In this document: positions 30,822 to 50,903 of the stretch, piece after piece | How the letters are laid out: each line of letters begins with the position of its first letter | How positions within the stretch are numbered: position 1 is the first letter of the stretch | Source: Saprospiraceae bacterium | GTDB taxonomy: Bacteria; Bacteroidota; Bacteroidia; Chitinophagales; Saprospiraceae | DNA: 50,903 bases | Assembly: GCA_046314415.1 (NCBI GenBank) | Contig: JBKBWT010000001.1 | Location: 1,160-52,062 of the forward strand | Reading direction: 5' to 3' | The notes under the pieces: model-generated | What the model saw: the letters and a program-made list of their open reading frames with translations, nothing else | Told to the model about the DNA's origin: nothing | Databases searched by the model: none | Program-made: the position numbers and the translations under genes

Positions 30822-30824
30822 GCA

Positions 30825-34194: not shown

Positions 34195-34235
34195 TAAAAC
34201 ACCAAAGTTCAAAACTTTTTAAAATTTACTTAATC

Positions 34236-35282
34236 ATGGAATCAGTTTTGAATGTGAATGTAAGTTGTTTTGCCAACTACACCAGCGCAGACAACCCGCG
34301 CCCGGTGAACCTTTTGCGCTGGCTGACTTCCGATAAATACCGCGCCGAAGTAGAAGCGATCCGCCAAACCAGCGACAAAGCCGACCGTGACCGATTAAAG
34401 GCAAAATTACCAGCTATCACACCGAGCGGACTATTTACACGCCGGGAAGCTGGCTGTTTGGTGCAACATTCCGGTTTACTCCAGTTTGATATTGACTTCA
34501 AAGAAAACCAGCACATTGCCAATTTTCCAGACCTCAAAAAGCAGCTGTGCAATATCAAAAACGTGGCTTATTGCGGGTTATCCGTTTCCGGCGCTGGCTA
34601 CTGGGGTTTGATACCCATATCGGAGCCACAGCGCCATAAAGAACACTTTGAAGCCTTGCGCCAATACTTTGCCGACCTTGGGGTAATGCTTGACGATAAG
34701 CCCAAAAACGTGGCTTCTTTGCGTGGCTATTCCTACGACCCGGAAGGATATTTCAACCACAGCGCCACGCCTTACCGGCAGTATATCCAAGCGGAGCCGG
34801 AACGATACGAGCGCCGATCAGCGCCACAGCCGCGCCCACAGTCCACAGAAGCGGAAAAGGTAGAGGCGATCCTTTCACAGATCAATGCAGGACGCATAGA
34901 TATTACCGGCAGCTATGGCGATTGGTTTGCAATCGGGTGCGCCCTGGCTAATACCTTTGGCGAAGCTGGCAGGGATTACTTTCACCAGCTGAGCCAATAT
35001 CACAGCGAGTATAGCTATAAGAACACAGACCGGCAGTTTGACCACTGCAAGCGAGGCAAGGGAGGCAAAAGCATTGCCACACTATACGAGATTGCAGAAC
35101 GGTACGGCGTACTTTACCGCAATGGATTGAGCGCCGCTCCAGCGCCACCACAGCGCCACCAGGCAGCAAAAAGAAACGCATTGCCACCAGGTCACACGGT
35201 AAAGCAGTTCACTAGCGTGCTGACTGGTGTATCCTTCGACCTGGAGTTAGACGCGCACGGCATACCGGCAATGTGGCGGTGA
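34236..35282 (+). CDS. primase-like protein (BT4734-like/VirE_N N-terminal domain plus PriCT-type C-terminal domain)
   Basis: 348-aa ORF. The N-terminal part KAKLPAITPSGLFTRREAGCLVQHSGLLQFDIDF matches the BT4734-like pattern. GSYGDWFAIGCALANTFGEAGRDYFHQLSQYHSEY resembles the primase C-terminal (PriCT) motif. Confidence 0.7.
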   Translation: MESVLNVNVSCFANYTSADNPRPVNLLRWLTSDKYRAEVEAIRQTSDKADRDRLKAKLPAITPSGLFTRREAGCLVQHSGLLQFDIDFKENQHIANFPDLKKQLCNIKNVAYCGLSVSGAGYWGLIPISEPQRHKEHFEALRQYFADLGVMLDDKPKNVASLRGYSYDPEGYFNHSATPYRQYIQAEPERYERRSAPQPRPQSTEAEKVEAILSQINAGRIDITGSYGDWFAIGCALANTFGEAGRDYFHQLSQYHSEYSYKNTDRQFDHCKRGKGGKSIATLYEIAERYGVLYRNGLSAAPAPPQRHQAAKRNALPPGHTVKQFTSVLTGVSFDLELDAHGIPAMWR

Positions 35283-35593
35283 AAACTTGCAATTATGCGT
35301 GCATATTTCCCCAAAATTTGCCCAAACTTAATTAAGCAAAAGCAAATCCGCGCCCTAGGGTATATGCGTGTAAGAAGGGTAATATTTTGAAAATCAAGCA
35401 AATAAAAGCCTTAAAACAAATACTTTATATGTCGAGGTATGTTACAAACTTTTTGTGTGAATTAAAATTTTATTTTACAGTATTTATTATTGTTATTTTT
35501 AATTTAAAATGTACCTAAAAAAAGGTAGTAATTCACTGTCCTTTCAAAAAATGACCCTTTTTTGCACCTTGCGACAGCTAAAAAATACTAGCA

Positions 35594-36286
35594 ATGAAGA
35601 AATTTTTTAATCTTCTGAAATCCAAGAAAATGAAGAATTTAGAACCAATTTTGTTAGATGAACGTACCGATCGTTCAGAATTGCAGTTGCTTCAGCTGAA
35701 GCAGCGCCGCGAAGAAAGTTATTCCCTCCTGGAAGCATTGCGCGTTGCCCTTGAAAAACTTTTAGGCGAAGCGCCCGACTTACACCAGATTGAGCAATTT
35801 ATCAGAATTTCAGACGAAAAAAGCGCCACGATTGAAGCTCTTAAAACTTATATGAAGGTCAAGCAAATAGACCTTGATATAGATTTAAATAGTGGATTTC
35901 AGAGCGTTCGCCTTCCTGGGGAGGTAAAGACGTTGGTTGACGCCTGGCAAGCCCTCAATTGGCACTCCCCGGAAGATTTTTCTCCGTATTGGTCGCAAGA
36001 AGATTTTGCCTTTCAACCGCTGCCAATCAACCCGGAAGAAGAAGCGAAAATCAGAGAGCGAAACCGGGTCTATGGTACGCAGGAACTCAATGAAATGTAC
36101 CAACATTTACGCATCAATTGCAACCTGATAAATTTTTATCGCAGGGAGAATCCTACATTACCATTTGATGCCTTTCCAAAAGTTTGGCAACCGTTTTTGA
36201 ACCGGGATGACAAAGGCAATTTTACGGTCAAGGAATCAGAATTTTTGACGCCTGGAGAGACTTACCAGGCGTTTGACGAAAGATAG
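35594..36286 (+). CDS. hypothetical protein (230 aa)
   Basis: ATG-initiated ORF with protein-like composition. I recognise no family. Confidence 0.55.
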   Translation: MKKFFNLLKSKKMKNLEPILLDERTDRSELQLLQLKQRREESYSLLEALRVALEKLLGEAPDLHQIEQFIRISDEKSATIEALKTYMKVKQIDLDIDLNSGFQSVRLPGEVKTLVDAWQALNWHSPEDFSPYWSQEDFAFQPLPINPEEEAKIRERNRVYGTQELNEMYQHLRINCNLINFYRRENPTLPFDAFPKVWQPFLNRDDKGNFTVKESEFLTPGETYQAFDER

Positions 36287-36377
36287 CATCTTGTTTTTTT
36301 ATCATATGTTGGTTAAAATCGTTTTTACTGCCGTCCTTAATTGGACGGCATTTTTCAAATCAAAATGAATAATTATC

Positions 36378-36818
36378 ATGCAGAATAATGAAGAAATGAA
36401 GGCGAGAATTGAGGCGCTGGAAGCAATTGTCGTGAAACAAAATGAGGAAAATAAAAGGCTTCGAGAGCAGTTAGACGCGGTACAATCTACCATGTCAAAT
36501 GAGGAATTTTTACTCAAAAGTCAGGCAGCAAAAGCGGCGGGTGAAATGCCTACATTCAAAGTTGAGGGCAAACTTTACTGTTTTACCGCTCCAGCTTTCA
36601 AACTGAATGGAATCAAGTACACAGCCTCCGAAGCGGTCAAGGATGTGCGATTGTTAAAGGAAATGATTGAAAAAGGGTACGGTGTCATTAAAGAAGTAGG
36701 GGAGCCGGAAAGCAAGAAAGATTACTCCGCTATTCCAATGATAAGCCGGGAACAAACATTCTTTTCCACACCTAGCCATTCCAGCGATAGCGGTATCCAA
36801 ATCACAGTAGTTGAGTAA
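36378..36818 (+). CDS. hypothetical protein (146 aa) with N-terminal coiled coil
   Basis: ATG start, with a heptad-like segment MKARIEALEAIVVKQNEENKRLREQL. Confidence 0.5.
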   Translation: MQNNEEMKARIEALEAIVVKQNEENKRLREQLDAVQSTMSNEEFLLKSQAAKAAGEMPTFKVEGKLYCFTAPAFKLNGIKYTASEAVKDVRLLKEMIEKGYGVIKEVGEPESKKDYSAIPMISREQTFFSTPSHSSDSGIQITVVE

Positions 36819-36846
36819 AATTTTCCAATTTCAAAAAAGCATTCTT

Positions 36847-37152
36847 ATGAATAAACAACAAGAAACTGACTGGAAACTCCGCTTTCATTACGGGGTAATT
36901 GATGAAGTCAAAGCCTTCTTTGGTTTGTCGGAAGACCTCACACCGGCGGAAGTTCATCACTTTATGATTGAACAGAATAAAGCCAAAGGAACAATGGTTC
37001 CCAGGGCATCCGCACCGGCAGCGCCGGTTACAAAAGTGACGACACCAGCGCCTAAAGTCGAGCCAAAAAAAGAGGAAATACCAGCAACACAAGCCTGGAG
37101 AATGTCAGCCTTTAACCAGCGACTTGAAAAGAAGTTTCGAGGGCAGAAGTAA
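36847..37152 (+). CDS. hypothetical protein (101 aa from ATG 36847; the track ORF starts at TTG 36811)
   Basis: The ORF has a Pro/Ala/Lys-rich linker. The ATG at 36847 avoids overlap with the preceding gene. Confidence 0.45.
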   Translation: MNKQQETDWKLRFHYGVIDEVKAFFGLSEDLTPAEVHHFMIEQNKAKGTMVPRASAPAAPVTKVTTPAPKVEPKKEEIPATQAWRMSAFNQRLEKKFRGQK

Positions 37153-37205
37153 ACATTCAGCAAAGGTTTTTTACATCGGTTACGTTTTTTTTATAAAGAA
37201 GATTG

Positions 37206-37233
37206 AGGCAGCCCAACGGGTTGCCTTTTTTTT
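37206..37233 (+). terminator. rho-independent terminator closing the island gene string
   Basis: GGCAGCCC aac GGGTTGCC forms an 8-bp stem and is followed by 8 Ts. Confidence 0.75.
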
Positions 37234-37273
37234 ATTTCTTTCTGCTAAAGATACTAACCAAAATACTAACGAG

Positions 37274-37320
37274 CGGAAAAGAAAAAGCCTAAAACATTGA
37301 CAAACAATGAATTAGGCTTT
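37274..37320 (-). terminator. terminator of the tRNA-Met gene (island-borne)
   Basis: On the minus strand, AAAGCCTAA ... TTAGGCTTT forms a 9-bp stem followed by TTCTTTTCC, directly downstream of the tRNA 3' end. Confidence 0.55.
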
Positions 37321-37328
37321 GTTTTTCG

Positions 37329-37401
<73 letters not shown>

Positions 37402-37613: not shown

Positions 37614-40007
37614 ATGCGCTTCTATCTACTTAGCATTTTACTGTGCTTAGTCCATGGGCTGCACGCACAGGTAGTTTGTTCGCCAGAGCAAGCGGAGCTG
37701 GTTATTGAGATTATGACCGACCGCTACGGGTACGAAACTTCCTGGGAATTGACCGGGAGTTCCGGTACACGTTATAAATTTTTGCCGCCATTTAGTTATA
37801 AAAATCAGCGCTTACACCGCGATACGCTCTGCCTGCCAGCAAATGACTGCTTCGCTTTTACAATTTATGATGTATTTGGTGATGGCATTGATGCACCGGG
37901 TTATTATTTGGTGCGCTTAAATGGTGATACGCTCCAGCGAGGCGGCATTTTTTATAAAGAAGAATCTTTATATTTAAATTGCCCATCAGGAATGGTTTGT
38001 GCAGTAGCAACGTCCATCACGCCCGGCACTTACACCGCAGCTTTCGATGATACCTGGTACGAGTTTATCCCTGATACGTCAGGAATTTATCGGATCTCAA
38101 CCCGAAATTTAAATACCTGCGACACTAAAATCTGGGTATATACTACTTGTGATGGCATTACCATTGCCGAGGACAATCAAAGTACGGTTTTTTATAATGA
38201 CAATGCGACCGCGCAAACGCCACAGGCAGAAGTCCGTGGCTTTTTTACGGCGGGCAAAACGTATCGGATTCGCATGGGCGATCATAATAATGCCTGCCGC
38301 GATAGTATTCGCTGGAATTTGACTTTTGAAGGTCCGCTGCGCGGCTGCACCAATCCTAATGCTTGTAACTACAATCCATTGGCAACAATTAACGATGGCT
38401 CCTGTTTGCTGCCGGGCGACCGCCGTTGCCCGAAAGGTCCTGATTTGCTGATTCGTCAGGATACGTTGCTACAATCGATTCGCCTGGATACCATTCATTC
38501 CGAAGACCTCTGCCTGATTCAGGAAGGCTGTGTACGCGGCTATGGGGTACGTAATGTTTTACGCTTTACAACACAAATACATAATATTGGCGAACGCGAT
38601 TATTATATTGGTAAACCAAATTATAATAACAATCAATTTACCTGGAATAATTGTCATAATCACTTTCATTATGATAATTATGCCGAATATTTAGTCATCG
38701 ACGAATCTGGTAAAAAAATGCCCATTGGCTTCAAAAGTGGCTTATGTATTACTGATTTTGGTTGCGAGCCTGGCTATAATCCAAAGTACAGTTGTGATAA
38801 TATGGGCATCAGCGCACATTGCTTTGATGCGTACTGGTCGGCGCTCAAGTGCCAATGGATTGACATAACTGATTTACCTGATGGGAGATACACATTAGTA
38901 GTACGCATCAATTGGAAAAATAGTCCCGATGCGTTAGGGCAAGTGGAAAAAGATTTGGATAATAATATCGCCCAGGTCTGTATTCGCTTAGACCGGAGTT
39001 CAGGCACCTTGAAATGCACCGTCGAGCAACCCTGTGATCCTTACCTCGATTGCGCGGGTATTCCTTTCGGCGAAACACAGCCCGATTGCCTGGGCATTTG
39101 CGGGGGTAAACGTTTATCGGGCGACGCGAATGAAAATGGACTACAGGAAATCGCCGACGCCGAGCAATACATCACGCTGCTGCTCGGTAATGACATCGAA
39201 CCCAATGCTTGTAATGATTTGAATGGTGATAGCGTCATCACGGTACAAGATGCAGTGCTGCTGGCTAGTTGCCTCAATTTTGGCGCGGCGCATCCACACG
39301 AAGGTGCCGGAATACACAATCACTGTCAGTTTCCCGTTGCCAATTTATTTAATACAAAAGATACTGTTACACTTGGCATTATGGGCGTAAACTGGGAGGA
39401 GCGTTACGTAGATATTGGGATTTTAAATCATACAACCAATATTACAGCCTATCAGTTTCGCCTTACGGGTGGCAGCATTAGCCACGTAGAAAGTCTGGTC
39501 GATGCTGCCACTTATCCGGTTACGCTGCGCACAAATATGAGCGAAGGTATGGTGATTGGCTTGTCCTATCGGGATTCGGTCATTCACAAATCAGAATTAA
39601 TGCAGCCGCTTTGTAGAATACATTTTTTTAATTTAAATCTATACACTATTGTAATTCAGGATATTATCTCAATTGTAAATAACAATTATGAACGCGTAGC
39701 CAATGCAATTATAAATGGCATTGCCGTAAAATCCACCACAACTCACATTAACAATATAAACAATATTATACAAGTACAAGTACGTCCAAATCCAATACAT
39801 GACGAAGCGCAGTTTGCTTTTTATAGCATTCAAAATCAGTATTTTACATTAGAAATTGTTGACTTAAACGGAAAGATCGTTCGACAATATGTCAACCTGC
39901 GTCCACCTGGTATCCGCATCAAGCGGGATGATCTGCCCGCCGGTATTTATTTTTATAAACTCATTGGGGAACGCAGCTATACTGCCGGTAAGTTTATTAT
40001 TCAATGA
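37614..40007 (+). CDS. secreted multidomain protein: lysyl-oxidase-like catalytic domain + dockerin + T9SS type A C-terminal sorting domain
   Basis: The track ORF starts at TTG 37563. The ATG at 37614 gives the signal peptide MRFYLLSILLCLVHGLHAQ. The LOX motifs CHNHFHY, KSGLCITD and CQWIDITD are present. Dockerin loops are DANENGLQEIAD and DLNGDSVITVQD. The C-terminus is ...RPNPIHDEAQFAF...LEIVDLNGKIV...LPAGIYFYKLIGE...GKFIIQ (Por secretion tail type). Confidence 0.85.
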   Translation: MRFYLLSILLCLVHGLHAQVVCSPEQAELVIEIMTDRYGYETSWELTGSSGTRYKFLPPFSYKNQRLHRDTLCLPANDCFAFTIYDVFGDGIDAPGYYLVRLNGDTLQRGGIFYKEESLYLNCPSGMVCAVATSITPGTYTAAFDDTWYEFIPDTSGIYRISTRNLNTCDTKIWVYTTCDGITIAEDNQSTVFYNDNATAQTPQAEVRGFFTAGKTYRIRMGDHNNACRDSIRWNLTFEGPLRGCTNPNACNYNPLATINDGSCLLPGDRRCPKGPDLLIRQDTLLQSIRLDTIHSEDLCLIQEGCVRGYGVRNVLRFTTQIHNIGERDYYIGKPNYNNNQFTWNNCHNHFHYDNYAEYLVIDESGKKMPIGFKSGLCITDFGCEPGYNPKYSCDNMGISAHCFDAYWSALKCQWIDITDLPDGRYTLVVRINWKNSPDALGQVEKDLDNNIAQVCIRLDRSSGTLKCTVEQPCDPYLDCAGIPFGETQPDCLGICGGKRLSGDANENGLQEIADAEQYITLLLGNDIEPNACNDLNGDSVITVQDAVLLASCLNFGAAHPHEGAGIHNHCQFPVANLFNTKDTVTLGIMGVNWEERYVDIGILNHTTNITAYQFRLTGGSISHVESLVDAATYPVTLRTNMSEGMVIGLSYRDSVIHKSELMQPLCRIHFFNLNLYTIVIQDIISIVNNNYERVANAIINGIAVKSTTTHINNINNIIQVQVRPNPIHDEAQFAFYSIQNQYFTLEIVDLNGKIVRQYVNLRPPGIRIKRDDLPAGIYFYKLIGERSYTAGKFIIQ

Positions 40008-40162
40008 AAGTAAAAGAGGATTTTCACCCAAACACTAAAACACCAAAACACTATAAAACAAAAACACCATAACCCCAAAAACTTCCGTCCACCCCTTTTA
40101 TTTTACAAAAACGCCAACCGAAATGCCGGTTTCGTTGTATTTTCGGTAGCAAATCGAGTATA

Positions 40163-40250
40163 AAATGAGAAATGAGAAATGAGAAATATGAAATGCGCTA
40201 CCTCATGTAATTTTTTTCACATTCCACATTTCATATCTCTCATTTCAAAT
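40163..40250. repeat. long imperfect inverted repeat built from GAGAAAT/GAAATG words (3 x 7-bp tandem in the left arm)
   Basis: The left arm atgagaaatgagaaatgagaaatatgaaatg pairs with the right arm cacatttcatatctctcatttcaaat. It lies between the LOX-like gene and the thiolase gene. Confidence 0.75.
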
Positions 40251-40252
40251 TT

Positions 40253-40260
40253 TAGATTTG
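40253..40260 (+). promoter_or_regulatory. candidate -7 box TAGATTTG (TAnnTTTG) upstream of the thiolase gene
   Basis: Exact consensus match 39 nt upstream of the ATG at 40299. Confidence 0.3.
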
Positions 40261-40298
40261 GCTCAAATCGTTTAAAAAACCAATAAAATCAAGTTTTA

Positions 40299-41480
40299 AT
40301 GAAAGAAGTATTCATTGTTTCCGCAGTTCGTACACCGCTGGGCAGTTTCGGCGGTATGCTGGCAGGCTTATCAGCCGTACAATTGGGCAGCATTGCCATC
40401 AAAGGCGCTTTAGAAAAAGCCGGGGTTGATCCGAAAGAAGTGGAAGAAGTCTATTTTGGCAATGTTTGCTCGGCTAATTTGGGTCAAGCCCCTGCCCGGC
40501 AGGCAGCCATCGGCGCAGGCTTGGGATATAATATTCCTTGCACTACTATTAATAAAGTGTGCGCTTCCGGCATGAAAAGTATCATGTTTGGGGCTCAAAG
40601 TATCATGTTAGGTCAGGCGGATATCATAGTGACCGGCGGAATGGAAAGTATGAGTAATGTGCCTTATTATGTACCCAATGCCCGCTGGGGTTATAAATAT
40701 GGCAAAGCCGAATTCATTGATGGCTTGGAAAAAGACGGTTTGCTGGATGCCTACGACCAGGTCTCGATGGGTATTTGCTCCGACAATACAGCTAAAAAAT
40801 ACGAGTTATCGCGCGAAGCACAGGATAATTTTGCAACCCGCTCTTTCAAATTAGCAGCAGAAAACACCAATAATAAAGTTTTTCAGGAAGAAATTATTCC
40901 CGTCAGCGTACCGCAACGCAAAGGCGACCCGATACAACTTACTGAGGATGAACAATATAAGAAGGTAGATTTTGCTAAAATCCCGACACTGCGTCCGGCT
41001 TTCACCAAAGATGGTACGGCTACAGCCGCCAATTCCTCGCCCATTAGCGATGGTGCTTCGGCGGTGATTCTGGTCAGTGCAGAAAAAGTAAAGGAACTCG
41101 GTTTAACGCCCATTGCTAAAATCATTGCGTTTGCCGATGCCGAGCAGGAGCCGATGTGGTTCACCACCACGCCTACCCTGGCTGCACCTAAAGCCTTGAA
41201 ACGCGCTGGAATGGATATTAAAAATATTGATTATTTTGAAGTGAATGAAGCGTTTTCGACCGTGCCCATGGCATTCGAGCAAATTCTGGGCGTGGACGAG
41301 GATAAAATGAATGTACATGGCGGCGCACTGGCGCTGGGACATCCGCTGGGCGCATCGGGTGCAAGGATTATTACAACATTAAATAATGTTTTAAAGCAAA
41401 AAAATGCCAGTGTCGGATTAGCAGCCATTTGCAATGGTGGCGGCGGCGCTTCGGCGATGATTATTGAGCGGGTGAATTGA
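40299..41480 (+). CDS. acetyl-CoA C-acetyltransferase (thiolase II)
   Basis: 393-aa ORF. The active-site regions NKVCASGMKS (Cys), NVHGGALALGHPLGASGARI (His) and ICNGGGGASAMIIE (Cys) are present. Confidence 0.93.
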   Translation: MKEVFIVSAVRTPLGSFGGMLAGLSAVQLGSIAIKGALEKAGVDPKEVEEVYFGNVCSANLGQAPARQAAIGAGLGYNIPCTTINKVCASGMKSIMFGAQSIMLGQADIIVTGGMESMSNVPYYVPNARWGYKYGKAEFIDGLEKDGLLDAYDQVSMGICSDNTAKKYELSREAQDNFATRSFKLAAENTNNKVFQEEIIPVSVPQRKGDPIQLTEDEQYKKVDFAKIPTLRPAFTKDGTATAANSSPISDGASAVILVSAEKVKELGLTPIAKIIAFADAEQEPMWFTTTPTLAAPKALKRAGMDIKNIDYFEVNEAFSTVPMAFEQILGVDEDKMNVHGGALALGHPLGASGARIITTLNNVLKQKNASVGLAAICNGGGGASAMIIERVN

Positions 41481-41541
41481 GTTATGATATCTTGATATTA
41501 AAATATTAAATCGAGTAACTCACTTTGAGCGAGTTACTCGG

Positions 41542-42189
41542 TTACTTATTCACTCTATAATCCTCTAAAATAGCTTCTACTTTTTGAATAATGGATTCCG
41601 AAATTCGATTCTCAGCACCACCGGCTCGAATGGCTCCAATAATTCTATTTTCCTTGTCCGTTATCAAGGTGAAGGGATAACCCCACATCAGATGAAATTG
41701 ATTTTCAGTAACATCGGTACCATTGGGAAGAATGGTAAAATGAAAGGGATGTTCTTTTAAAAACTCCTGCAACTGCTCCGGTTGATCTCTGACAATCGCC
41801 AGAAAATTAATGTCCGAACGATTATATTTTTGCACTAACGTATTTAAATCAGGAATTTCCTCCACACAAGGCGCGCAATGAATAAACCAGAAGTTAATAA
41901 TATTTATTTTTCCTTTAATATTATTGGTGTTAATCGTATTGCCATTCATATCCGTCAATTCAAATTCGGGGAGCTTAGCGCCGAGTAAACACGCCGGTTT
42001 CACTATATGAGGTCTTCCTTTTTGACCAGTCTCTACTACTTCAAACTCTAATCCCAAATCCTCCGAATTTTTCAGACAATTGGCAACCCGCACGGCATAG
42101 GTTTCTTCGGAGACTTTGCAAGCAGGGGTAAGTAATAAAGAATGAATAATTAAAATAAAGAAAATTATTTTTCTAGATAAGTAATTCAT
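41542..42189 (-). CDS. TlpA/redoxin-family thiol:disulfide oxidoreductase, lipoprotein-type signal
   Basis: 215-aa ORF with a signal peptide ending LLTPAC. It has a thioredoxin-fold motif NFWFIHCAPCVEEIP (CxxC). Confidence 0.8.
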   Translation of the reverse strand: MNYLSRKIIFFILIIHSLLLTPACKVSEETYAVRVANCLKNSEDLGLEFEVVETGQKGRPHIVKPACLLGAKLPEFELTDMNGNTINTNNIKGKINIINFWFIHCAPCVEEIPDLNTLVQKYNRSDINFLAIVRDQPEQLQEFLKEHPFHFTILPNGTDVTENQFHLMWGYPFTLITDKENRIIGAIRAGGAENRISESIIQKVEAILEDYRVNK

Positions 42190-42334
42190 TTTGAACCTGA
42201 TTTTGATAGAACATCTAGTGAGATTGTTTAATCCTATTTTTCAAATCTTGAGTTCTTCTGTTATATACTTCCAGCTGACCTTCAGATAGATGTACCTCCA
42301 TGATTTTGAGATGCTTTTCCCGAATTTGCACATT

Positions 42335-43051
42335 CTACTGATGTTGGAGTACAAACCAGATGGTATTGGACAAATCGTACCCAACTTCCTGAACGCCTGG
42401 GTATCCATAATGAGTGAGAATGGAATCCGCCTTAATTAAATTCAAGGAATCCAATTCCTTTTGCAATTTCCACAAGGCACTTTTCTCCGCTTCTGGAATT
42501 TGAATTCTATCATCTGCCAATTTTTTTCGATATTTCTGATCATTCTCCTGCATTTCCTGTAAAAGCGAGATCAAAGCAGGCTTCATTCTGGCGGAATCCA
42601 ATGAAGGTCTGCTATTTATATATGCGTCTTCTTCCCTCAGTTGGCGCTCGTCGTATTCCTGATAAGCATTTTCACCCAGCTTTTGCAAACACAAATCAAA
42701 GACTTCATAAAACTGCGCAGTATCCGCTTTATAAAGATTTTTATAAAAACCATAATGAACAGCAAGTCGATTCATTTCAAAAATGGATTCGCAAAGCCCG
42801 GTATTTTCTTTTACTGCTTTCTTTAAGTGTTTGTAAATCAAATGGTTCGGCGCTTTCAAGTTCGCCAGTTGAAATGCAATAGAATAGTAATTATCTGCTT
42901 CATAAGCAAGCATGAGTTTACTGCGAAAATCCTCGTAAGCTGCTACAGTAAGGCTTTCCGGGCGTTCGGTGATGAAAGACTTGTTGCACTGGATAAAAAT
43001 CAAAGCAATAAATAAGTATAAAAAGAAAATCTTTACATATGTTTTATTCAT
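42335..43051 (-). CDS. hypothetical secreted protein (possibly truncated by an in-frame TAG, see findings)
   Basis: 238-aa ORF with an N-terminal hydrophobic signal. I cannot assign a family with confidence. Confidence 0.55.
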   Translation of the reverse strand: MNKTYVKIFFLYLFIALIFIQCNKSFITERPESLTVAAYEDFRSKLMLAYEADNYYSIAFQLANLKAPNHLIYKHLKKAVKENTGLCESIFEMNRLAVHYGFYKNLYKADTAQFYEVFDLCLQKLGENAYQEYDERQLREEDAYINSRPSLDSARMKPALISLLQEMQENDQKYRKKLADDRIQIPEAEKSALWKLQKELDSLNLIKADSILTHYGYPGVQEVGYDLSNTIWFVLQHQ

Positions 43052-43254
43052 AAACAGGTGATTATTACGTCAGCGTTTTAAGATTCGCCAGAAAATCTTA
43101 TGAGTATATTTATTTACATTAAGCTTGGAATAAAATTGGCAAGTGTTTCAGTTGGATATTACAAATAAAGTGATTTTTTTATAATACTACAAGTAGGTAA
43201 ATGTATTTTGTTAATATTTAACATTATATGCTGTGATTATTTACATTTTTTGGC

Positions 43255-43291
43255 AAAAAAAAGTCCCCCTCCTGTCTGCTAGGAGAGAGAC
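43255..43291 (-). terminator. strand-specific rho-independent terminator with no annotated upstream ORF
   Basis: On the minus strand, GTCTCTCTCCT agcagac AGGAGGGGGAC forms an 11-bp stem (2 G-U pairs that would be C-A on the plus strand). Eight Ts follow. Confidence 0.6.
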
Positions 43292-43857
43292 CATCCCAAA
43301 AACCGATTTAAGTATATACTAAAAACGGCTTTTGTGAATCACATACAATCCAATCGCCTTAACTAAAAATCTTTACATACATTGCATACAGTTATGTAAT
43401 AACTGTCGATGTATTTTATATTTTGCTAACTTATGAATCCGGGAAAAGAAAGAAGCGGAGCAAATCGTAATGCACAGAGCTACGTCATTGAGGACGCGGA
43501 GGCGGTCTCCTGGATTTTCACGGATTATAAGTTGTTATATTCAACGGTTATTGTTGACGCACTAAATATTTTAGCCGCTTGTCGTTGATAGCCTTTCTCA
43601 ATTTTCGCTCTTGATTACAAATGTTAATCCACGTTGCCGGAACGGCAGTTCTGAAGTAAACCAATTTAATTAGGATGAAAAAGTGCTACTGGATAGGTAG
43701 CATAAGAGTGGTATGTAGCTTCAAAATGCAACTTGCTCATGGATTATAATTTGTAACTAATTTGTTGAGTACAAAAATACAGGAAAAGCCGGTGTTTCGA
43801 TATACCCTAAATAAGGTATTTTTATAATAAATCTTCCCTTATTCACAAGGTACCCCG

Positions 43858-43896
43858 GTAAAAAAAAGAGCCTCTCGCACCGTCGTGGAGAGGCTA
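43858..43896 (-). terminator. rho-independent terminator of the T9SS cargo / PorP operon
   Basis: On the minus strand, AGCCTCTC ... GAGAGGCT forms an 8-bp stem followed by CTTTTTTTT, about 80 nt after the PorP/SprF stop. Confidence 0.65.
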
Positions 43897-43972
43897 CCCC
43901 AAAAAACCAATTGTTAAAGGACATCTAAATCTTTATACCTATTTGCTTTTTATTTAGCAACGTGTATTATTC

Positions 43973-44890
43973 TTACTGATTCGCACGCTGGTTTGTTGGA
44001 TTCTTTTTAACTAAATTAAATAACAAACTGATTTCGTGCGAGCCACTATTAAATTTCTGGAAACGCTGGAACGACATATCATAAGAATACAATACATTGA
44101 AATTAGAGATTTTTGCGCCCAGCAAAATGCCCAATGCCCCCAAGGAGCGGTACGATACACCGGTAATTAGCTGATCTTCCAGGAAAGTAGCCTTCAGGTT
44201 GATGTCCACCTGCGCCGGGGCATCTTTTACGCGCCGGGCCATAATGGAAGGTTCCAGCGAAAAATTCAAATCATAAATATCAAAGCGATGTGCCAGAAAC
44301 AAGGTATAATGTTGTAAGGCAGATTCATCGGTGCTTTCTACTACATCATCCAGGCGGCTTTGAATCAAATTGGCAAAGGACAAACCGAAGCGGGTATTGT
44401 CGCGAATACTACCAAACACACCGATAGAAGCATCAAATTCATTGACACCATTCATGTAATCGTTAATCACATTATCCCCCTCATCCACTCTGCCAAAATC
44501 AGCATTATTATCGAGTCTTAATTGTTGATAGAATGCGGAGAAACCAGCCGACATTTTCACGTATTCACTCAAATTAAAGCGGAAAGCCCAGTTGAGTTGC
44601 CCTTTGAGGCGAGTAAGTTGCGCAGCGGTTTCAGCGGAAACACCTACCCCTATACCAAAATTCTTACCGACCGGGCTATTGAGCATGGCACTAACCGTCT
44701 GTGGAGCATCCGCAAAACCAGTCCACTGCGCGCGCCCGTTCATTTGTAACTGAAAAGTGTTGTTAAAGCCAGCGGCTGCCGGGTTGATGAGAATTGGAGT
44801 AATATGATAATGCGTGAAAATGGCTTCATCTTGTGCCCGTACCACTTGCCAGACAGCGAAAAAAGATATGAGTAGAAGTAATTTTTTCAT
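43973..44890 (-). CDS. type IX secretion system membrane protein, PorP/SprF family
   Basis: 305-aa ORF with a signal peptide, then QDEAIFTHYHITPILINPAAAGF..., the characteristic PorP/SprF N-terminus, and beta-barrel-like composition. It lies immediately downstream of a type B CTD gene. Confidence 0.88.
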   Translation of the reverse strand: MKKLLLLISFFAVWQVVRAQDEAIFTHYHITPILINPAAAGFNNTFQLQMNGRAQWTGFADAPQTVSAMLNSPVGKNFGIGVGVSAETAAQLTRLKGQLNWAFRFNLSEYVKMSAGFSAFYQQLRLDNNADFGRVDEGDNVINDYMNGVNEFDASIGVFGSIRDNTRFGLSFANLIQSRLDDVVESTDESALQHYTLFLAHRFDIYDLNFSLEPSIMARRVKDAPAQVDINLKATFLEDQLITGVSYRSLGALGILLGAKISNFNVLYSYDMSFQRFQKFNSGSHEISLLFNLVKKNPTNQRANQ

Positions 44891-45010
44891 GATTAAAATC
44901 GGTTGATGGATGATGTAATAAAAAGTTGATGGTTACAGGGTTATCGGCTAACCGGGTAATTGGGTATTGGTTTTATTCCCAATTACCCGATTGCCCTGTA
45001 TCATTTAGTT

Positions 45011-48000
45011 TTATTTTCCGCGCAGAATCGTGAGCGAACCTTTTTGCTGTACCAGGTTGCCATCCTTATTGGTGTATTCCAATACAAAGTAATAAGGTCC
45101 ATCCGGCAGTGGGTCGCCACTCTGTGTGGTGCCTTCCCAACCAGATTGATAGTTATCTGCCTGGAATACCAGTTGTCCCCAGCGGTTGTAAATTTCCAGA
45201 TGGTTTTCGGCACTTTCATTACAAGTCACTCTAAAGTCTTCATTAGCGCCGTCTCCTTCCGGTGTAATAATTACTTTATCAACCAAACAGTCAGGATTAC
45301 CCGATTCACCAACAATGCCAGTGGCACTTGGCGCAGTACATCCCCGACTATCGGTCACGGCTACCATATAAGTACCTGCACATAATCCATCAATCATAGC
45401 ATCGCTGCTCATCGGCGCATTCCAGCGGAAAGTATAAGGAGTTGAACCACCTTCCACTACCGCAAGTGCCGAACCATTACAGCCATCTGTAGCCGGTTGT
45501 GTTTCTACTTTAACTTGAATTGGTTTAGGCTCAGCTAATGTAAATGAAGCGGTCACTTTACAATTATTGCCATCCGTAGCTACCACCTGGTAGGTACCAG
45601 GTCCACGATTCAACAAGAATGGACCAGCCTCCTGAGGCGTTGTATTCCATACAAAACTATAAGGTTTGCCAACTGCTCCACCAACTGCGTTTAGTACAAT
45701 TCTACCGTCGGTTCTACCTGCACAGGAAATCTGTTGAATATTGGCAACCACCTGAATCGAATCCGGCGGCACCACATTGATTTGCTTGGTAACCGTACAA
45801 CCAATTGCATCGGTCACCGCAACTTGATAAGCTCCGGCACCTACGCCATTCAATACAGGTGTAGTACCTAATACCGTAGTGCCACGACGCCATTGATAGG
45901 AGTAGTTGCCACTACCACTTTTGCCAGTCGCCTCGATGATACCATCGGTTGAAGTCGGGCAACTAATATCCGAACCATTGTAATCAGAAATCACTTCGAC
46001 ATCTGCATTCAAATTTGAATTGGAGCCAATGGTAAATTGTTTGGTCAAGGTATTACCCGACTGCTCCGTAACGCTCACCGTATAAACACCAGGTGCTACA
46101 TTTTTCAAGGTATCAGCAGTAGAAATTACCGTACCGGCAGCATTCCGCCAGGAATAACCATAAGGTTTGGTGCCTCCGGTAATACTCAATGCAATCACGC
46201 CGGTAGTATCCTGCGGACAAGCGGTGGCAACCGCAGCGCCATTGGCACGGAAAGTTGTCACCGGAATAGCAGGGAAGGTTTGCCGACAGCCATTCGCATC
46301 CTGTACGGTTGCAATAAAATTACCTTCGCAAAGATTGATAATCTGCGTGTTATTGCCGGTATTCGGTGTATTCCATTGTACACTGTAGGGTTGCTTACCT
46401 CCGGAGAAGGTAACACTAATGCTACCCGTACAACCTGACTCTTCGGTATCATGTTTTACCACACTGGCGACTTGAATAGGTGCCGGCTGTGGTACATCAA
46501 CACTGTCGCGTAATATGGTACCGAGATCATCGGTGATGGTATAAACCAACTTGCCACCGCTCAGATTATTCTTGTTTACAGTACCATTGTTATTTGACAA
46601 TGTCGTATTATCACTAAATGCAATGTTATAAGGAGCACGCCCGCCGTTAATCTGGAAGGACAGCGTACCGTCATTGTTGCCTGCACAAGTTACCCCTGTG
46701 ATCTGGCGATTGGCAGTTGAAAGCGGAATATTTTGCTCTGTCACATTGTAACAGCCACTATTCGTACAGCCGCGACTGTCAGTTACGGTTACACAGTATT
46801 CGTCCTTCCGCAAATTCGCCAAAGTATCCTTGGTAGAATTATCTTCCCATCTGATGGTATAAGGACCTGTACCCCCACTGATTGCCAGCACGATTCGACC
46901 ATTTGAACCACCCACACTTGCCTGCGTAATCTGCGCATTGAGTACAATCGGTGGATATTTGGTAATTTCAAAGCTGGAAGTATTGGTTCCTCCTTGACTA
47001 TCTGTAATCGTGACGGTATAAGTACCGGCTGCTACGTTATTTAAGTTTTGCGTGGTTGCACCATTGCTCCAACGGAAAGAATAAGGCGATGCTCCTCCGC
47101 TAACAGTCAGTATCACTGAACCAGTGGTCGTGCCATCACAAATACGATTTGCCTGTCCGGTTACGTTCAACGGTGCAGTAATACTTGCGCAGCGTGTAGC
47201 CGTACAATTCTGTGCATCCGTCACCGTCACACAATACTGGCCCGGCGTAGTCAAACCACTGAGGTCTTTTTGCGTAGAAGTATAATTATTGGGACCCGCC
47301 CAAGCGTAAGTATAAGTACCGGTGCCACCCGTTACCGTTATTGCAATAGCGCCATTGGTACCTTGTTGATTGATATTGGTAGGAACCATATTGCTAACCT
47401 GCACAGTTGATTGCGAAGCAACGTTCAAATTAGTGAGTGCAAACGTACAGCTCCGCGCATCCGTGATGGTAACAGCGTAAGTACCAACTGCCAGATTACT
47501 CTGTGAAGCAACATTGTCGGGCAACGAACCACTCCAGTTATACTGATATGGGCTCGTACCTCCAGATACATTTAAAGTAATGCCACCTGAATTAGCCGCA
47601 GCGCCGCAGGCGATATTGGTAATGTTGGAAGTTGCATTCAACGCGGCAGCTGGTTGGTTGACGTTATAAGTGCCGGTAACTGTCAAAGAAGTCGTTGCAT
47701 CTGTCACCGTTACTGAATACGTACCCGCCGGAATATTGGTCAAATCCTGCGTGGTCGCATTATTACTCCATCGATAGGTAAAATTACCAGAACCACCCTG
47801 TGGGGTAATATTGATAGCGCCCGTCGATTGCCCAAAACAGTTCACCCCTGTGATAGCAGGCACTGCCAGGGTCGGAGCAGCAGGTCCACTGCTACCAATG
47901 GTAACAGTTCCATTTTTAGTAGAGAAAGGCTCCGCTTCCTCATCTATATTATCCACCCCCATTGGTGCGGTAGGCGTTCCGGTAAAACTCAATGCAGCGG

Positions 48001-49735
48001 TTGTACCATTGGCACCAATTGCATTGAAGCAAAGTTGAAAAATGACGCTGCCATTCGGACGATCCACCCCAGCTACTGCATTGTCAAACCAAACCATTGT
48101 AACTAAACCTGCTGTTGTGGGTGGAGCACTGGTAGGTGTACCAAACTGCGCCACGGTCAAATCAGGTAAACCAAATTGCCCAACGGACACAAATTGTAAT
48201 CTGGTTGCATCATATTGTATGCCTAAGGTTATACCAATAATGTCGTTCATATTATCAACCGTCACATCCACACAAACCTGCTGCCCCGACTGAACGGTTT
48301 TATCAGAGATGGAAAATCTTAACTGCCCAGGCTGAGGGTCGCCTCCACCGCCCGTACCCACGGTCACCGTACCATTCTTGCTACTGAAAGTAACAAATTG
48401 AGAATTACCATTTACGATTTCAATTGGCGTGGGACTGGCTACAAAATTTACACTGGAGCTACCAGTAGTCATCAAAATTTTGAAGCATACCTGAAAAATA
48501 TTGGTTCCGTCCGGTATGGTCACGCCTTGAACCGCCGGGTCACTCCACGACACGGTGATCCTACCTCTTGGAACTGCACCTGAACCGGGCAATCCAAAAG
48601 AATTGATGTCTAATCCACTTAGATTAAAGCTGCCGACAGAAACGAATTGTAATTTGGTGGTATCATATTGCAAACTGAATTGCATGAATAGAATGTCGTT
48701 GTACCCCTGTGCGGTTACATCCAAACAAACATTGGTGCCGCTTGGGGCAGTCTTATCAGCGAGGCTTAGTCTGAATGTATTCGTATTACCACCGCCTGAA
48801 GTAATAGATACGGTACCATTTTGACCATTGAATGTTACGGCGCTTCCACCACCTTTGGTCACTACCTGTGCCTGTGGAGCGTTGGTAAAACCTACTACGG
48901 CGTCTCCGGTTGCGGTTGCGGTAAAACAAACCTGATAAATTACGGTGCCATTTGGTCGGCTTACGCCGGCTGCGGTTGCAGGTGTATTCGTCCAGTTAAC
49001 AGTGATTCTACCTTTTGGAACACCGGTGGTGCCTGGTAATCCAAAAGCAGCATTTGTCAAGCCTGCCAAATTAAAGCTACCTACGGAAACAAATTGCAGG
49101 CGGGTTGTATCATATTGTAAGGTATATCTGGTTGTACCAATACTGTCGAAACCCTCGGTCGTAACATCCACACATACCTGCTGCCCCTGGGTTACACTTT
49201 TATTAGAAGCAATGAGTTTGAACGGTGTTGCAGCACTGCCATTTATGGTTACATTACCGGCTTGCCCATTGAAGGTTAAAGAGGATCCCCCAGCATTGAA
49301 AACATCTGGTGGGGTGGGTGTATTACTAAATTCGACTTTTGTAGTATTAGCGGAGTTTAATACATTGAAACACACTTCAAAAATAGTTGTACCGTCGGGG
49401 CGTGTTAACCCGGCAAATGTTTTTTCGTCCCACAATACGGTAATTTTACCTTGTGGAACATTACCTGAGCCGGGAAGACCGAAGCTGCTTGCTTCAGTAA
49501 GATCAGGTAGATTTAAATTTTTAACGGATGCAAATTGAAGTGCGGAGGGGTCATAGCTAATAGAGAATTGAAAACCTAGAATCTGATTGAATCCACTTAC
49601 CTTTATGGGCAAACAAATTTGTTGCCCTCGGTTAGCGGTAGTACTTCCAACACTGAAAGTGACAGTCTGAGCTGCCGCATAGCTGGCGCAAAATAGCAAC
49701 AGTACTGCTATAAAAGGTGTAATGAATCTCTTCAT
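45011..49735 (-). CDS. 1574-aa T9SS type B cargo: 4 tandem cohesin-like modules + 11 SprB-type repeats + gliding-motility-associated (CHU_C) C-terminal domain
   Basis: Signal peptide ...CASYAAAQ. Four ~145-aa modules have the pattern G..vC.(d/p)v.v.gf..i.g.qf.lqYD...LqFvSvg.f.l... (nt 47891-49669). SprB repeats such as CFGQSTGAINITPQGGSGNFTYRWSN follow. The C-terminus is ITPEGDGANEDF...IYNRWGQLVF...GWEG...GPYYFVL...GSLTILRGK. Confidence 0.9.
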   Translation of the reverse strand: MKRFITPFIAVLLLFCASYAAAQTVTFSVGSTTANRGQQICLPIKVSGFNQILGFQFSISYDPSALQFASVKNLNLPDLTEASSFGLPGSGNVPQGKITVLWDEKTFAGLTRPDGTTIFEVCFNVLNSANTTKVEFSNTPTPPDVFNAGGSSLTFNGQAGNVTINGSAATPFKLIASNKSVTQGQQVCVDVTTEGFDSIGTTRYTLQYDTTRLQFVSVGSFNLAGLTNAAFGLPGTTGVPKGRITVNWTNTPATAAGVSRPNGTVIYQVCFTATATGDAVVGFTNAPQAQVVTKGGGSAVTFNGQNGTVSITSGGGNTNTFRLSLADKTAPSGTNVCLDVTAQGYNDILFMQFSLQYDTTKLQFVSVGSFNLSGLDINSFGLPGSGAVPRGRITVSWSDPAVQGVTIPDGTNIFQVCFKILMTTGSSSVNFVASPTPIEIVNGNSQFVTFSSKNGTVTVGTGGGGDPQPGQLRFSISDKTVQSGQQVCVDVTVDNMNDIIGITLGIQYDATRLQFVSVGQFGLPDLTVAQFGTPTSAPPTTAGLVTMVWFDNAVAGVDRPNGSVIFQLCFNAIGANGTTAALSFTGTPTAPMGVDNIDEEAEPFSTKNGTVTIGSSGPAAPTLAVPAITGVNCFGQSTGAINITPQGGSGNFTYRWSNNATTQDLTNIPAGTYSVTVTDATTSLTVTGTYNVNQPAAALNATSNITNIACGAAANSGGITLNVSGGTSPYQYNWSGSLPDNVASQSNLAVGTYAVTITDARSCTFALTNLNVASQSTVQVSNMVPTNINQQGTNGAIAITVTGGTGTYTYAWAGPNNYTSTQKDLSGLTTPGQYCVTVTDAQNCTATRCASITAPLNVTGQANRICDGTTTGSVILTVSGGASPYSFRWSNGATTQNLNNVAAGTYTVTITDSQGGTNTSSFEITKYPPIVLNAQITQASVGGSNGRIVLAISGGTGPYTIRWEDNSTKDTLANLRKDEYCVTVTDSRGCTNSGCYNVTEQNIPLSTANRQITGVTCAGNNDGTLSFQINGGRAPYNIAFSDNTTLSNNNGTVNKNNLSGGKLVYTITDDLGTILRDSVDVPQPAPIQVASVVKHDTEESGCTGSISVTFSGGKQPYSVQWNTPNTGNNTQIINLCEGNFIATVQDANGCRQTFPAIPVTTFRANGAAVATACPQDTTGVIALSITGGTKPYGYSWRNAAGTVISTADTLKNVAPGVYTVSVTEQSGNTLTKQFTIGSNSNLNADVEVISDYNGSDISCPTSTDGIIEATGKSGSGNYSYQWRRGTTVLGTTPVLNGVGAGAYQVAVTDAIGCTVTKQINVVPPDSIQVVANIQQISCAGRTDGRIVLNAVGGAVGKPYSFVWNTTPQEAGPFLLNRGPGTYQVVATDGNNCKVTASFTLAEPKPIQVKVETQPATDGCNGSALAVVEGGSTPYTFRWNAPMSSDAMIDGLCAGTYMVAVTDSRGCTAPSATGIVGESGNPDCLVDKVIITPEGDGANEDFRVTCNESAENHLEIYNRWGQLVFQADNYQSGWEGTTQSGDPLPDGPYYFVLEYTNKDGNLVQQKGSLTILRGK

Positions 49736-49789
49736 TGCGCTCGGAGTTTGGGATGTTACAAAAATGTTGATTAAATCGGTCTTGTCCTT

Positions 49790-50593
49790 TTACAGAAAAA
49801 TCAATTTTTGTGTAATAACAAAATCAGGTGATACGAGTAAATATTGATATGCTCCCGGAACCGGAAACATCTCTTTCGTCAGTCGCAATGTATGTAAGCC
49901 ACTTGCCATGAATCGCTGTTCTTCGTGAATCGTCTGTCCTTGTGTATTTTGAATCAGAAGTCGGACTTGCGATGCCGCCTTCAGTTCAAGTTTTACCTGT
50001 GTAAACTCATGAAAAGGATTGGGATAACTGTCTTCGACCTGTACAAGGTGAGGTGCACTATTGTACACATGCGTACTGGTCGCAGCATCTACTCTTACTG
50101 CACCATCTAAATACTTTGCGTCCACTTCGTTCAGGCTGGAATCAGCAATTTCGCGGAGTGCAATATCATCAGTGAAAGATAAGGGACTAATAGCTGCAGG
50201 AGTGCCAATTACCTCGAAATTGATAGAAAAGAGTGTAGTGCTATCATCCAGGCTGCGTCCTTGCAGGGATTCATCATACCACTGGAAAGCTAACATACCA
50301 TCAGCGGTTTTTTGTAATCCGAAACTTTCAACCTGAGGGTTGAGCGATAATGTAAAGTCTCTCACCTCTTTAAAGCGGAGTACGTTGGTATTCCATTTCA
50401 CGGTAAATTGTACGCCGACGATCTTTTTGAAATGAGCTACTTTAATATTAGCCTTATAAATAGTAGATGGGGGTACTATTGCAGTAGGTGCGATAATGGT
50501 AGGTAAAGTCTGTGCTTGTAATGCAAACACTATAGAAAAGCACAAAACACAGGAGAGTATAGCGCTTCCTATCTTTTTCATGGGATCAAACAT
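49790..50593 (-). CDS. secreted protein with one cohesin-like module and a T9SS type A C-terminal sorting domain
   Basis: 267-aa ORF; the start may be the ATG at 50581 (MKKIGSAILSCVLCFSIVFALQAQ). The module reads KANIKVAHFKKIVGVQFTVKWNTNVLRFKEVRDF...MLAFQWYD...TLFSINFEVIG. The C-terminus is YPNPFHEFTQVKLELKAASQVRLLIQNTQGQTI...GAYQYLLVSPDFVITQKLIFL. Confidence 0.75.
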   Translation of the reverse strand: MFDPMKKIGSAILSCVLCFSIVFALQAQTLPTIIAPTAIVPPSTIYKANIKVAHFKKIVGVQFTVKWNTNVLRFKEVRDFTLSLNPQVESFGLQKTADGMLAFQWYDESLQGRSLDDSTTLFSINFEVIGTPAAISPLSFTDDIALREIADSSLNEVDAKYLDGAVRVDAATSTHVYNSAPHLVQVEDSYPNPFHEFTQVKLELKAASQVRLLIQNTQGQTIHEEQRFMASGLHTLRLTKEMFPVPGAYQYLLVSPDFVITQKLIFL

Positions 50594-50736: not shown

Positions 50737-50903
50737 TTATTCTACAACGACCATTTTCTTGGTAGCGTTGAATTCACCAGCCTGGAGGGTGTAGGTCAGC
50801 ACACCGGTAGGCAGGTCAGCTGAGTTCAGGATTACCTGGTTGTAACCCTTCACATAGGAACCTCTCACCAGTTTCACGACTTTACCCGTGATATCCGAGA
50901 TCG
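50737..50903 (-). CDS. C-terminal 55 codons of a T9SS type A CTD-bearing protein (the gene enters from the right window edge)
   Basis: My own translation is ISDITGKVVKLVRGSYVKGYNQVILNSADLPTGVLTYTLQAGEFNATKKMVVVE followed by a stop (TAA at 50739-50737). This fits the Por secretion tail pattern. It is not in the ORF track because it is truncated. Confidence 0.7.
   Translation of the reverse strand, partial: ISDITGKVVKLVRGSYVKGYNQVILNSADLPTGVLTYTLQAGEFNATKKMVVVE

Follow-up and report, generated by a model that had tools for sequence, protein, structure and literature searches.

A lysyl oxidase-family protein with dockerin-like and predicted cohesin-fold modules neighbours a putative cohesin-bearing SprB-type surface unit in a Saprospiraceae bacterium

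The DNA analyzed here, referred to as the window, is the whole stretch of 50,903 nucleotides taken from contig JBKBWT010000001.1 (assembly GCA_046314415.1) of a Saprospiraceae bacterium. From position 37614 to its end it encodes a lysyl oxidase (LOX)-family protein, several intervening genes and a minus-strand group of genes for cohesin-bearing proteins and a PorP/SprF-family protein. An earlier reading of this region (the sequence-only reading) had proposed that the LOX, by means of a dockerin, is recruited to a cohesin scaffold displayed by the T9SS (type IX secretion system). The features of the region are listed below, with their coordinates, strand and the evidence for them (aa, amino acids; AF2, AlphaFold2; CTD, C-terminal domain; ORF, open reading frame).

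37614..40007, plus strand: precursor of a LOX-family copper amine oxidase, 797 aa (Pfam, NCBIfam)
38439..39038, plus strand: predicted LOX catalytic domain, aa ~276-475 (PF01186)
39111..39281, plus strand: LOX dockerin-like module, aa 500-556 (two F-hand Ca-loop and helix repeats)
39345..39749, plus strand: predicted cohesin-fold beta-sandwich of LOX, aa ~578-712 (AF2 fragment model, Foldseek)
39777..40007, plus strand: C-terminal sorting domain of LOX, T9SS type A (PF18962, TIGR04183)
40299..41480, plus strand: thiolase (acetyl-CoA acetyltransferase)
41542..42189, minus strand: TlpA/AhpC-like thiol-disulfide oxidoreductase
42335..43051, minus strand: protein of unknown kind, 238 aa
43973..44890, minus strand: PorP/SprF-family outer-membrane protein, presumed anchor or shuttle of the type B scaffold
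45011..49735, minus strand: scaffold protein, 1574 aa (Pfam, TIGR04131)
49790..50593, minus strand: small single-cohesin protein ending in a type A CTD (ORF of 267 aa; called gene of 263 aa, start at 50581)
50737..50903, minus strand: 3' end of a further type A CTD gene, which leaves the window (translation, phmmer)

The LOX protein consists of a signal peptide, two N-terminal beta domains, the LOX catalytic domain, the dockerin-like module, the cohesin-fold module and the type A T9SS CTD, in this order. In the scaffold a signal peptide is followed by 4 cohesins (nt 47891-49675), 11 SprB repeats and a type B (CHU_C) CTD (nt 45011-45271). Signal peptides were recognized by inspection at the N-termini of LOX, the scaffold and the small protein, and T9SS tails were identified by profiles, which agrees with the sequence-only reading for all three proteins. 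The LOX and scaffold genes are convergent, and the thiolase gene, the TlpA-like gene and the gene of the unknown 238-aa protein lie in between; an operon of LOX and scaffold, considered as an explanation of their adjacency, was ruled out by this convergent orientation and by the unrelated genes between them.

On the LOX protein, Pfam Lysyl_oxidase (PF01186) matched aa 309-462 with an E-value of 9e-35 and 120.6 bits (cut-off 20.4). The full-length AF2 model (mean predicted local distance difference test score, pLDDT, 88.7) had human LOXL2 (5ZE3) as its top Protein Data Bank (PDB) match in Foldseek (E 5e-13), and phmmer detected the same protein with the catalytic domain at E 3e-24. In the phmmer alignment the LOX motifs CHNHFH, GFKSGLC and FDAY are paired with CHRHYH, GHKASFC and WDMY of LOXL2. 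The HxHxH copper-site histidines H348, H350 and H352 are present, aligned to CHRHYH, and the counterparts of the lysine tyrosylquinone (LTQ) precursors are K374, aligned to GHKASFC, and Y407, aligned to WDMY. Across 108 homologs each of these residues is either invariant or conserved to at least 90%, and presumably they have the roles that are established for the Cu-site histidines and the LTQ-forming Lys and Tyr of LOXL2. The protein is accordingly annotated as a predicted copper amine oxidase in which the Cu-site histidines and the LTQ-forming Lys and Tyr are intact; catalytic fold, HxHxH copper site and LTQ Lys/Tyr are common to animal LOX/LOXL2 (5ZE3) and the Saprospiraceae LOX. Its type A CTD was matched by Por_Secre_tail (PF18962) with 31.7 bits and by TIGR04183 with 37.9 bits (cut-off 23), and by the CTD of mirolase (8qb1) in Foldseek.

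More than 1000 matches were obtained for LOX homologs of ~797 aa, with Saprospiraceae, Lewinellaceae and Phaeodactylibacter as named sources, and one scan of genome contigs detected LOX relatives encoded in 360 genomes. LOX homologs in Bacteroidetes have been reported before, while the function of bacterial lysyl oxidases was left open (PMC4448552). Most of the prokaryotic LOX catalogued there are described as simple single-domain proteins (PMC4448552), whereas the family described here consists of multidomain T9SS cargo proteins of 797 aa with two N-terminal beta domains, dockerin, cohesin and CTD as extra modules. The N-terminal beta domains (aa 20-242; 37671-38339) gave a Foldseek match to s3a-s3b, the tandem collagen-binding domains of the clostridial collagenase ColG (5iku; E 3.5e-4, probability 1.00, 233 aligned columns), which was placed on the N-terminal region by its length. 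This modelled resemblance hints at a protein- or collagen-like substrate-binding function of these domains.

Dockerin_1 (PF00404) reached 23.0 bits on a 90-aa fragment of LOX, which is borderline at a cut-off of 22.9, and 16.7-19.2 bits on other LOX fragments; on the whole protein it was not reported at E<0.01. LOX contains two canonical 12-residue Ca-loop motifs, DANENGLQEIAD and DLNGDSVITVQD, which are 31 aa apart, and it is the only one among all ORFs of the window with the paired canonical F-hand motif. In the AF2 model each Ca-loop is followed by a helix (513-524 and 544-559), so that the module shows the duplicated Ca-loop and helix arrangement expected of a type I dockerin. D504, D515, Y519, C533, D535, D546 and C553 are invariant in 108 sequences, the mean column conservation of the dockerin segment is 0.68 compared with 0.74 for the catalytic domain, and the module is conserved across the ~190 family members examined. 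Because of the paired loops, the invariant aspartates, the predicted helices and the strong conservation, the LOX dockerin is credible at the level of sequence and model despite its marginal Pfam score. The LOX-like protein, its dockerin and its type A tail were therefore found where the sequence-only reading had placed them, by Pfam, TIGR04183 and the loop motifs, with Dockerin_1 as the borderline element. A hidden Markov model (HMM) of the LOX dockerin matched LOX ORFs only, the profile being too family-specific.

Between this dockerin and the domain that follows sits a His-rich linker (aa 557-577; 39282-39344) that is conserved in the LOX family, with H568, H570 and C571 invariant and H560 and H562 at least 90% conserved, and that was modelled by AF2 with low confidence. 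It could form an extra metal site, possibly for copper.

The full-length AF2 model revealed a nine-strand beta domain between the LOX dockerin and the CTD, a module that the sequence-only reading had missed. When aa 495-720 were modelled separately, a pLDDT of 90.5 and a predicted TM-score (pTM) of 0.87 were obtained. In a Foldseek search of this fragment against the PDB, 14 of the 15 top matches were cohesin modules, while rank 12 (3ndy_E) was an endoglucanase chain; probabilities were 0.99-1.00, and single-module cohesin chains had target-normalised TM-scores of 0.46-0.60. The matched cohesins are from C. thermocellum (1anu, 1ohz, 2ccl, 4fl4), C. acetobutylicum (6kgd, 6kgc), C. perfringens (2jh2, 2w1n, 2vo8) and A. 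fulgidus (2xdh). Pfam Cohesin did not match the module, and hhalign of the beta domain against the cohesins of the window gave E-values of 0.04-0.3, which are not significant. A 97% match of LOX cohesin plus CTD to the small protein was discarded, as it was driven by the CTD and not by the cohesin. According to the model, LOX aa ~578-712 has the beta jelly-roll fold of cohesins, undetected by sequence profiles. The dockerin (65 aa) must be placed confidently relative to the cohesin (135 aa), because a pTM of 0.87 would otherwise be unreachable for a fragment of 226 residues. The LOX dockerin may thus be packed in cis against the protein's own cohesin, and may not be free. Cohesin and dockerin on one polypeptide are known in Archaeoglobus fulgidus and in some scaffoldins.

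The same cassette of dockerin, cohesin and type A CTD, always in this order, was found on diverse, unrelated passengers: proteins of 1339 aa (locus L087) and 957 aa (L086), an HYR_4C protein (L054) and two large proteins from the profile search described below (P0169, P0273). In L054 the HYR_4C protein (Dockerin_1 24.8 bits, Cohesin 27 bits, type A CTD) is encoded directly upstream of LOX. Two cassette-bearing cargo genes lie side by side in this locus (1-2400 and 3162-5594), and its LOX is 46% identical. The His-rich linker of LOX is absent from the cassettes of HYR-type proteins.

On the minus strand, Pfam Cohesin (PF00963) matched four stretches of the scaffold (E 1e-35, 122.9 bits, cut-off 24.1); the protein further has 11 SprB stretches, CHU_C with 74 bits and a TIGR04131 type B CTD with 47.5 bits (cut-off 35), and it is without a dockerin. 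The PorP/SprF gene (PF11751 178.5 bits, TIGR03519 189 bits) begins 120 nt downstream of it, and in relatives a PorP/SprF gene always follows the scaffold gene immediately. SprB repeats, a type B CTD and an adjoining sprF-like gene, the hallmarks of SprB/SprF-type adhesins, are therefore all present. The small protein scored 33.9 bits with Cohesin (cut-off 24.1) and 24.2 bits with TIGR04183 (cut-off 23); wherever context is available, its 22 orthologs are encoded directly upstream of a multi-cohesin SprB/CHU_C gene. With these matches, the four-cohesin scaffold with a type B CTD and its PorP/SprF neighbour (Pfam, TIGR04131, TIGR03519) as well as the small single-cohesin protein with a type A CTD were recovered as the sequence-only reading had described them. 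The arrangement resembles F. johnsoniae sprCDBF, where a large SprB-repeat protein with a type B CTD is encoded just upstream of a PorP/SprF gene, whereas the N-terminal four-cohesin array of the scaffold and the small cohesin protein are not features of F. johnsoniae SprB. Proteins with a type B CTD are anchored at the surface through association with PorP-like proteins (PMC9143113).

A further gene at the edge of the window had escaped the sequence-only reading. The ~165 nt at the window end (50737..50903, minus strand) encode the C-terminus and stop codon of a type A CTD protein, ...ISDITGKVVKLVRGSYVKGYNQVILNSADLPTGVLTYTLQAGEFNATKKMVVVE*. In phmmer this tail matched the C-terminal cassette of the 1339-aa protein of L087 (4978-8997) with E 5e-13; that protein has HYR-like repeats, a weak Dockerin_1, Cohesin with 24.4 bits and Por_Secre_tail, and its gene lies directly upstream, on the same strand, of a small cohesin gene, a cohesin-SprB scaffold gene and a PorP gene. 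In every case with sequence (window, L003/L010, L006, L009, L011, L087, L089), the small cohesin gene has a cassette-bearing gene immediately upstream, and in L086 the 957-aa protein (Dockerin_1 27 bits, type A CTD) is encoded directly upstream of a cohesin-SprB-CHU_C gene and PorP. Since the cassette is found upstream in every available relative, the conserved unit consists of a cassette-bearing HYR-type gene, the small cohesin gene, the scaffold gene and PorP/SprF. The gene at the window end is, from its tail sequence, likely an ortholog of the HYR-type dockerin-cohesin-CTD-A proteins and the scaffold unit's own dockerin-bearing partner. In nearly all independent assemblies the sequence stops inside the HYR-type gene, at most a few hundred bases upstream of the small cohesin gene (window 50737-50903, L006, L008, L009, L011, L088-L091), which suggests that this gene is repeat-rich or multicopy and systematically missing from short-read metagenome-assembled genomes.

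To compare the surroundings of LOX, HMMs were built from the window cohesins, iterated once, and used to search the six-frame ORFs of 80 species-level LOX loci; the 42 loci in which LOX is followed by 9 kb or more of sequence were taken as informative. A cohesin scaffold was found within 10 kb of LOX in five of the 42 informative species loci and in none of the other 37, and L008, with 8.7 kb downstream of LOX, is a sixth locus with a scaffold. All scaffold-bearing LOX loci belong to the closest LOX relatives (53-74% identity), yet L012, L036 and L081 fall into the same range of identity and are without a scaffold. The conserved genomic association expected of a LOX client and its scaffold is thus not seen across these loci, and in the sequence around LOX the co-occurrence of LOX-dockerin genes with cohesin scaffolds in relatives, which the sequence-only reading had proposed as a check, is confined to the closest clade. 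In the scaffold-bearing LOX loci, as well as in L091 and L003, the block consists of LOX, thiolase, PorP, scaffold and small cohesin. Adjacency of LOX and thiolase is more widely conserved than that of LOX and scaffold and occurs in more distant genomes without a scaffold nearby (L021-L024, L036, L038, L039). Because LOX-thiolase adjacency persists without the scaffold, the block appears to reflect inherited synteny rather than function. In L001/L002 (LOX 62% identity) a cohesin-free CHU_C protein occupies the position of the scaffold after the thiolase, and L087, L088 and L089/L090 have the triad (small cohesin, scaffold, PorP) but no LOX in the available surrounding sequence. That the scaffold specifically recruits LOX is therefore weakly supported, the evidence being a proximity restricted to one clade.

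Beyond the observed domain content, folds and synteny statistics, we infer the cohesin-dockerin pairings, the surface anchoring and the enzyme activity. On balance we lean towards two separate units, which are neighbours in one Saprospiraceae clade only, with the LOX dockerin most likely pairing with the protein's own cohesin, since AF2 predicts dockerin and cohesin as one rigid unit. The first unit would be the family-wide LOX copper amine oxidase, secreted by the T9SS, with its type A CTD targeting it for export and for surface attachment or release; the pairing of its dockerin with its own cohesin would occur in cis or head-to-tail between LOX molecules. The second unit, on the minus strand, would comprise the HYR-type adhesin-like cassette protein, the small cohesin-CTD-A protein, the 4-cohesin SprB protein and PorP/SprF. 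Here the SprB-type scaffold would be held on the outer membrane by PorP/SprF with its free cohesins at the distal end, the small protein would supply one further free cohesin, and dockerin-tagged T9SS cargo could dock on the free cohesins of both. Foremost among the candidate clients would be the HYR-type protein encoded in cis, while LOX would be one of several at most. A cohesin-dockerin network at the surface, exported by the T9SS and possibly including LOX, is plausible and looks widespread.

Two observations weigh against this division. LOX, scaffold and the same intervening genes occur together in at least eight related loci (window, L003/L010, L006-L009, L011, L091), and some functional coupling of LOX and scaffold within the closest clade is possible. 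In addition, a terminator-like hairpin (50720-50693, minus strand) separates the tail gene from the small cohesin gene, and the minus-strand set of four genes may therefore be split into more than one transcript.

According to the sequence-only reading, the LOX dockerin docks on a cohesin of the scaffold or of the small protein, so that the oxidase is shown on a PorP-anchored SprB-type filament and there serves to cross-link proteins of the surface, the matrix or prey, or to make H2O2. Every part needed for this lies within 13 kb, the scaffold with its 4 cohesins and no dockerin needs external dockerins, and the gene block is kept together in the related loci named above; elsewhere dockerin-bearing T9SS cargo adjoins such scaffolds directly upstream (L086, L087). 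We nevertheless regard this model as unlikely: the adjacency is limited to the closest clade (5/42 informative loci), the genes are convergent with a housekeeping thiolase between them, and the LOX-thiolase linkage outlasts the scaffold. Moreover, a conserved dockerin-bearing gene already belongs to the scaffold unit itself, the LOX cohesin is predicted to be packed on the LOX dockerin, and L001/L002 have the cohesin-free CHU_C protein in place of the scaffold. What stands of the sequence-only reading is its parts list, the anchoring by PorP, which fits the described behaviour of type B CTD proteins (PMC9143113), and a non-cellulosomal cohesin-dockerin surface system as a reasonable assumption, the link of LOX to the scaffold being weakly supported.

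Alternatively, dockerin and cohesin of LOX could be a purely intramolecular, rigid, Ca-stabilised stalk or spacer between enzyme and CTD without intermolecular assembly, the neighbouring scaffold then being an unrelated SprB-type adhesin with cohesins that bind something else. The fragment pTM of 0.87, the fixed order of the cassette on diverse passengers and a LOX cohesin too divergent for sequence profiles would fit this, and the conserved Cys pair C533/C553 together with the His-rich linker points to a specialised structural module. However, hundreds of related proteins with 4-13 free cohesins are hard to explain without dockerin ligands, and cassette genes consistently adjoin free-cohesin genes, which makes such a stalk improbable as the whole explanation. 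Least likely, and in our view improbable, is that the cassette drives head-to-tail homo- or hetero-polymerisation, each cargo dockerin binding the cohesin of the next molecule, so that LOX, HYR-type adhesins and scaffold would form a mesh at the surface that LOX could fix by lysine-derived cross-links: proteins with both cohesin and dockerin are common here, an HYR cassette gene lies directly upstream of LOX in L054 and the LOX catalytic residues are intact, but the AF2 monomer model favours the cis arrangement.

The profile of the small cohesin family was searched exhaustively against 1.84 billion representatives (clusters at 50% identity). This yielded 69,836 matches at E<=1e-3, 4,024 at E<=1e-10 and 840 clusters at E<=1e-30, the best matches being mostly giant proteins with 3-13 cohesin stretches. 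A Pfam scan of nine giant matches showed free cohesin arrays, and Dockerin_1-Cohesin-Por_Secre_tail cassettes in P0169 and P0273; P0175 has 7 cohesins with a type A CTD by Pfam. Hundreds of clusters of giant cohesin proteins, of up to >3000 aa and with 3-13 cohesins, are found among P0161-P0307, and some of the nine scanned giants also carry ASH/HYDIN-like Ig, He_PIG or CHU_C-associated Ig_7 domains. The cohesin modules are a widespread and apparently unstudied feature. Tentatively, the units described here could be part of a widespread T9SS cohesin-dockerin surface assembly, in which SprB filaments held by PorP/SprF would present 4 to 13 free cohesins and cassette-tagged cargo (HYR, PKD/Ig, LOX) would plug into the filaments or into each other, forming a modular, possibly mobile 'adhesome' in Saprospiraceae and probably other Bacteroidota. 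We hold this joint proposal to be possible, though doubtful in its entirety.

In full-text literature searches, no paper was found that links the T9SS, cohesin-dockerin modules and Saprospiraceae or LOX. The sequence-only reading had assumed that no described system combines T9SS, cohesin-dockerin docking and LOX; LOX as cargo is indeed new, but cohesin-dockerin assembly with the T9SS has a partial precedent in Cloacimonadota. For Ca. Stygibacter, a CTD-anchored cohesin scaffoldin and dockerin-bearing enzymes were inferred from the genome (PMC8542988), so that this complex, like the Saprospiraceae system, is known from genomes only. It has a chitinase, an amylase and peptidases as clients, and its scaffold has carbohydrate-binding modules (CBMs) (PMC8542988), whereas the scaffold described here belongs to the SprB-repeat type, has a type B CTD and is accompanied by a dedicated PorP/SprF, and the clients carry the dockerin-cohesin-CTD-A cassette, one of them being a LOX.

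The combination of a multi-cohesin non-catalytic protein with dockerin-tagged secreted proteins is shared with cellulosomes and non-cellulosomal systems (C. thermocellum CipA and its enzymes with type I dockerins; C. perfringens GH84C/NagH toxin complexes), and the LOX cohesin-fold module structurally matches clostridial and A. fulgidus cohesins (1anu, 1ohz, 2ccl, 6kgd, 2jh2, 2xdh). In contrast to the clostridial systems, the proteins here belong to Gram-negative Bacteroidota and are exported by the T9SS, with a putative anchor of type B CTD and PorP/SprF instead of SLH or sortase. Unlike in the cellulosome there is no CBM or glycoside hydrolase cargo; the candidate cargo consists of an oxidase and HYR-type adhesin-like proteins.

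Several further observations concern the surroundings of the two units. Approximately 920 bp (43052-43972) without an ORF of at least 60 aa separate the gene of the unknown 238-aa protein from PorP, at a GC content of 0.36 over 42-44 kb, and a strong terminator-like hairpin is present in this stretch at 43292-43262 (minus strand). An Rfam scan gave no match in 43052-43972, and tRNA-Met was the sole match of the Rfam and tRNA scans. A promoter scan returned 28 matches where 25.9 were expected, with a sigma-70 consensus that is not appropriate for Bacteroidota. Just upstream of LOX lies a probable integrated mobile element (27884-37401) that encodes a tyrosine integrase (27884-29194), a VapE-like protein (32619-33968) and a PriCT/BT4734-like primase (34236-35282), and that is flanked by a low-GC stretch (26-28 kb, GC 0.34) and the tRNA-Met gene (37328-37401, minus strand). 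The genes upstream of LOX differ among relatives; in L003, for instance, they are nos genes. At 3806-11029 (plus strand) the window encodes a second giant protein of T9SS type B, which has 2407 aa and contains SprB repeats, CHU_C and Ig-like domains; no cohesin or dockerin was detected in it.

If the cohesin-dockerin pairing is true, the system would carry the cellulosome principle over to a Gram-negative, T9SS-exported assembly, built on a SprB filament of the gliding type and serving adhesins and an oxidase instead of glycoside hydrolases. If the assembly is indeed widespread, a lysine oxidase would be positioned in it for the cross-linking of captured or self proteins. The multidomain secreted LOX family, with its 360 genomes, offers an accessible system for the role of bacterial lysyl oxidases, and the general system of the four-gene unit and the dockerin-cohesin-CTD cassette is a more interesting target than the link of LOX to the scaffold. 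The 840 clusters suggest that Bacteroidota which are abundant in the environment have a large class of surface architecture that is still unexplored.

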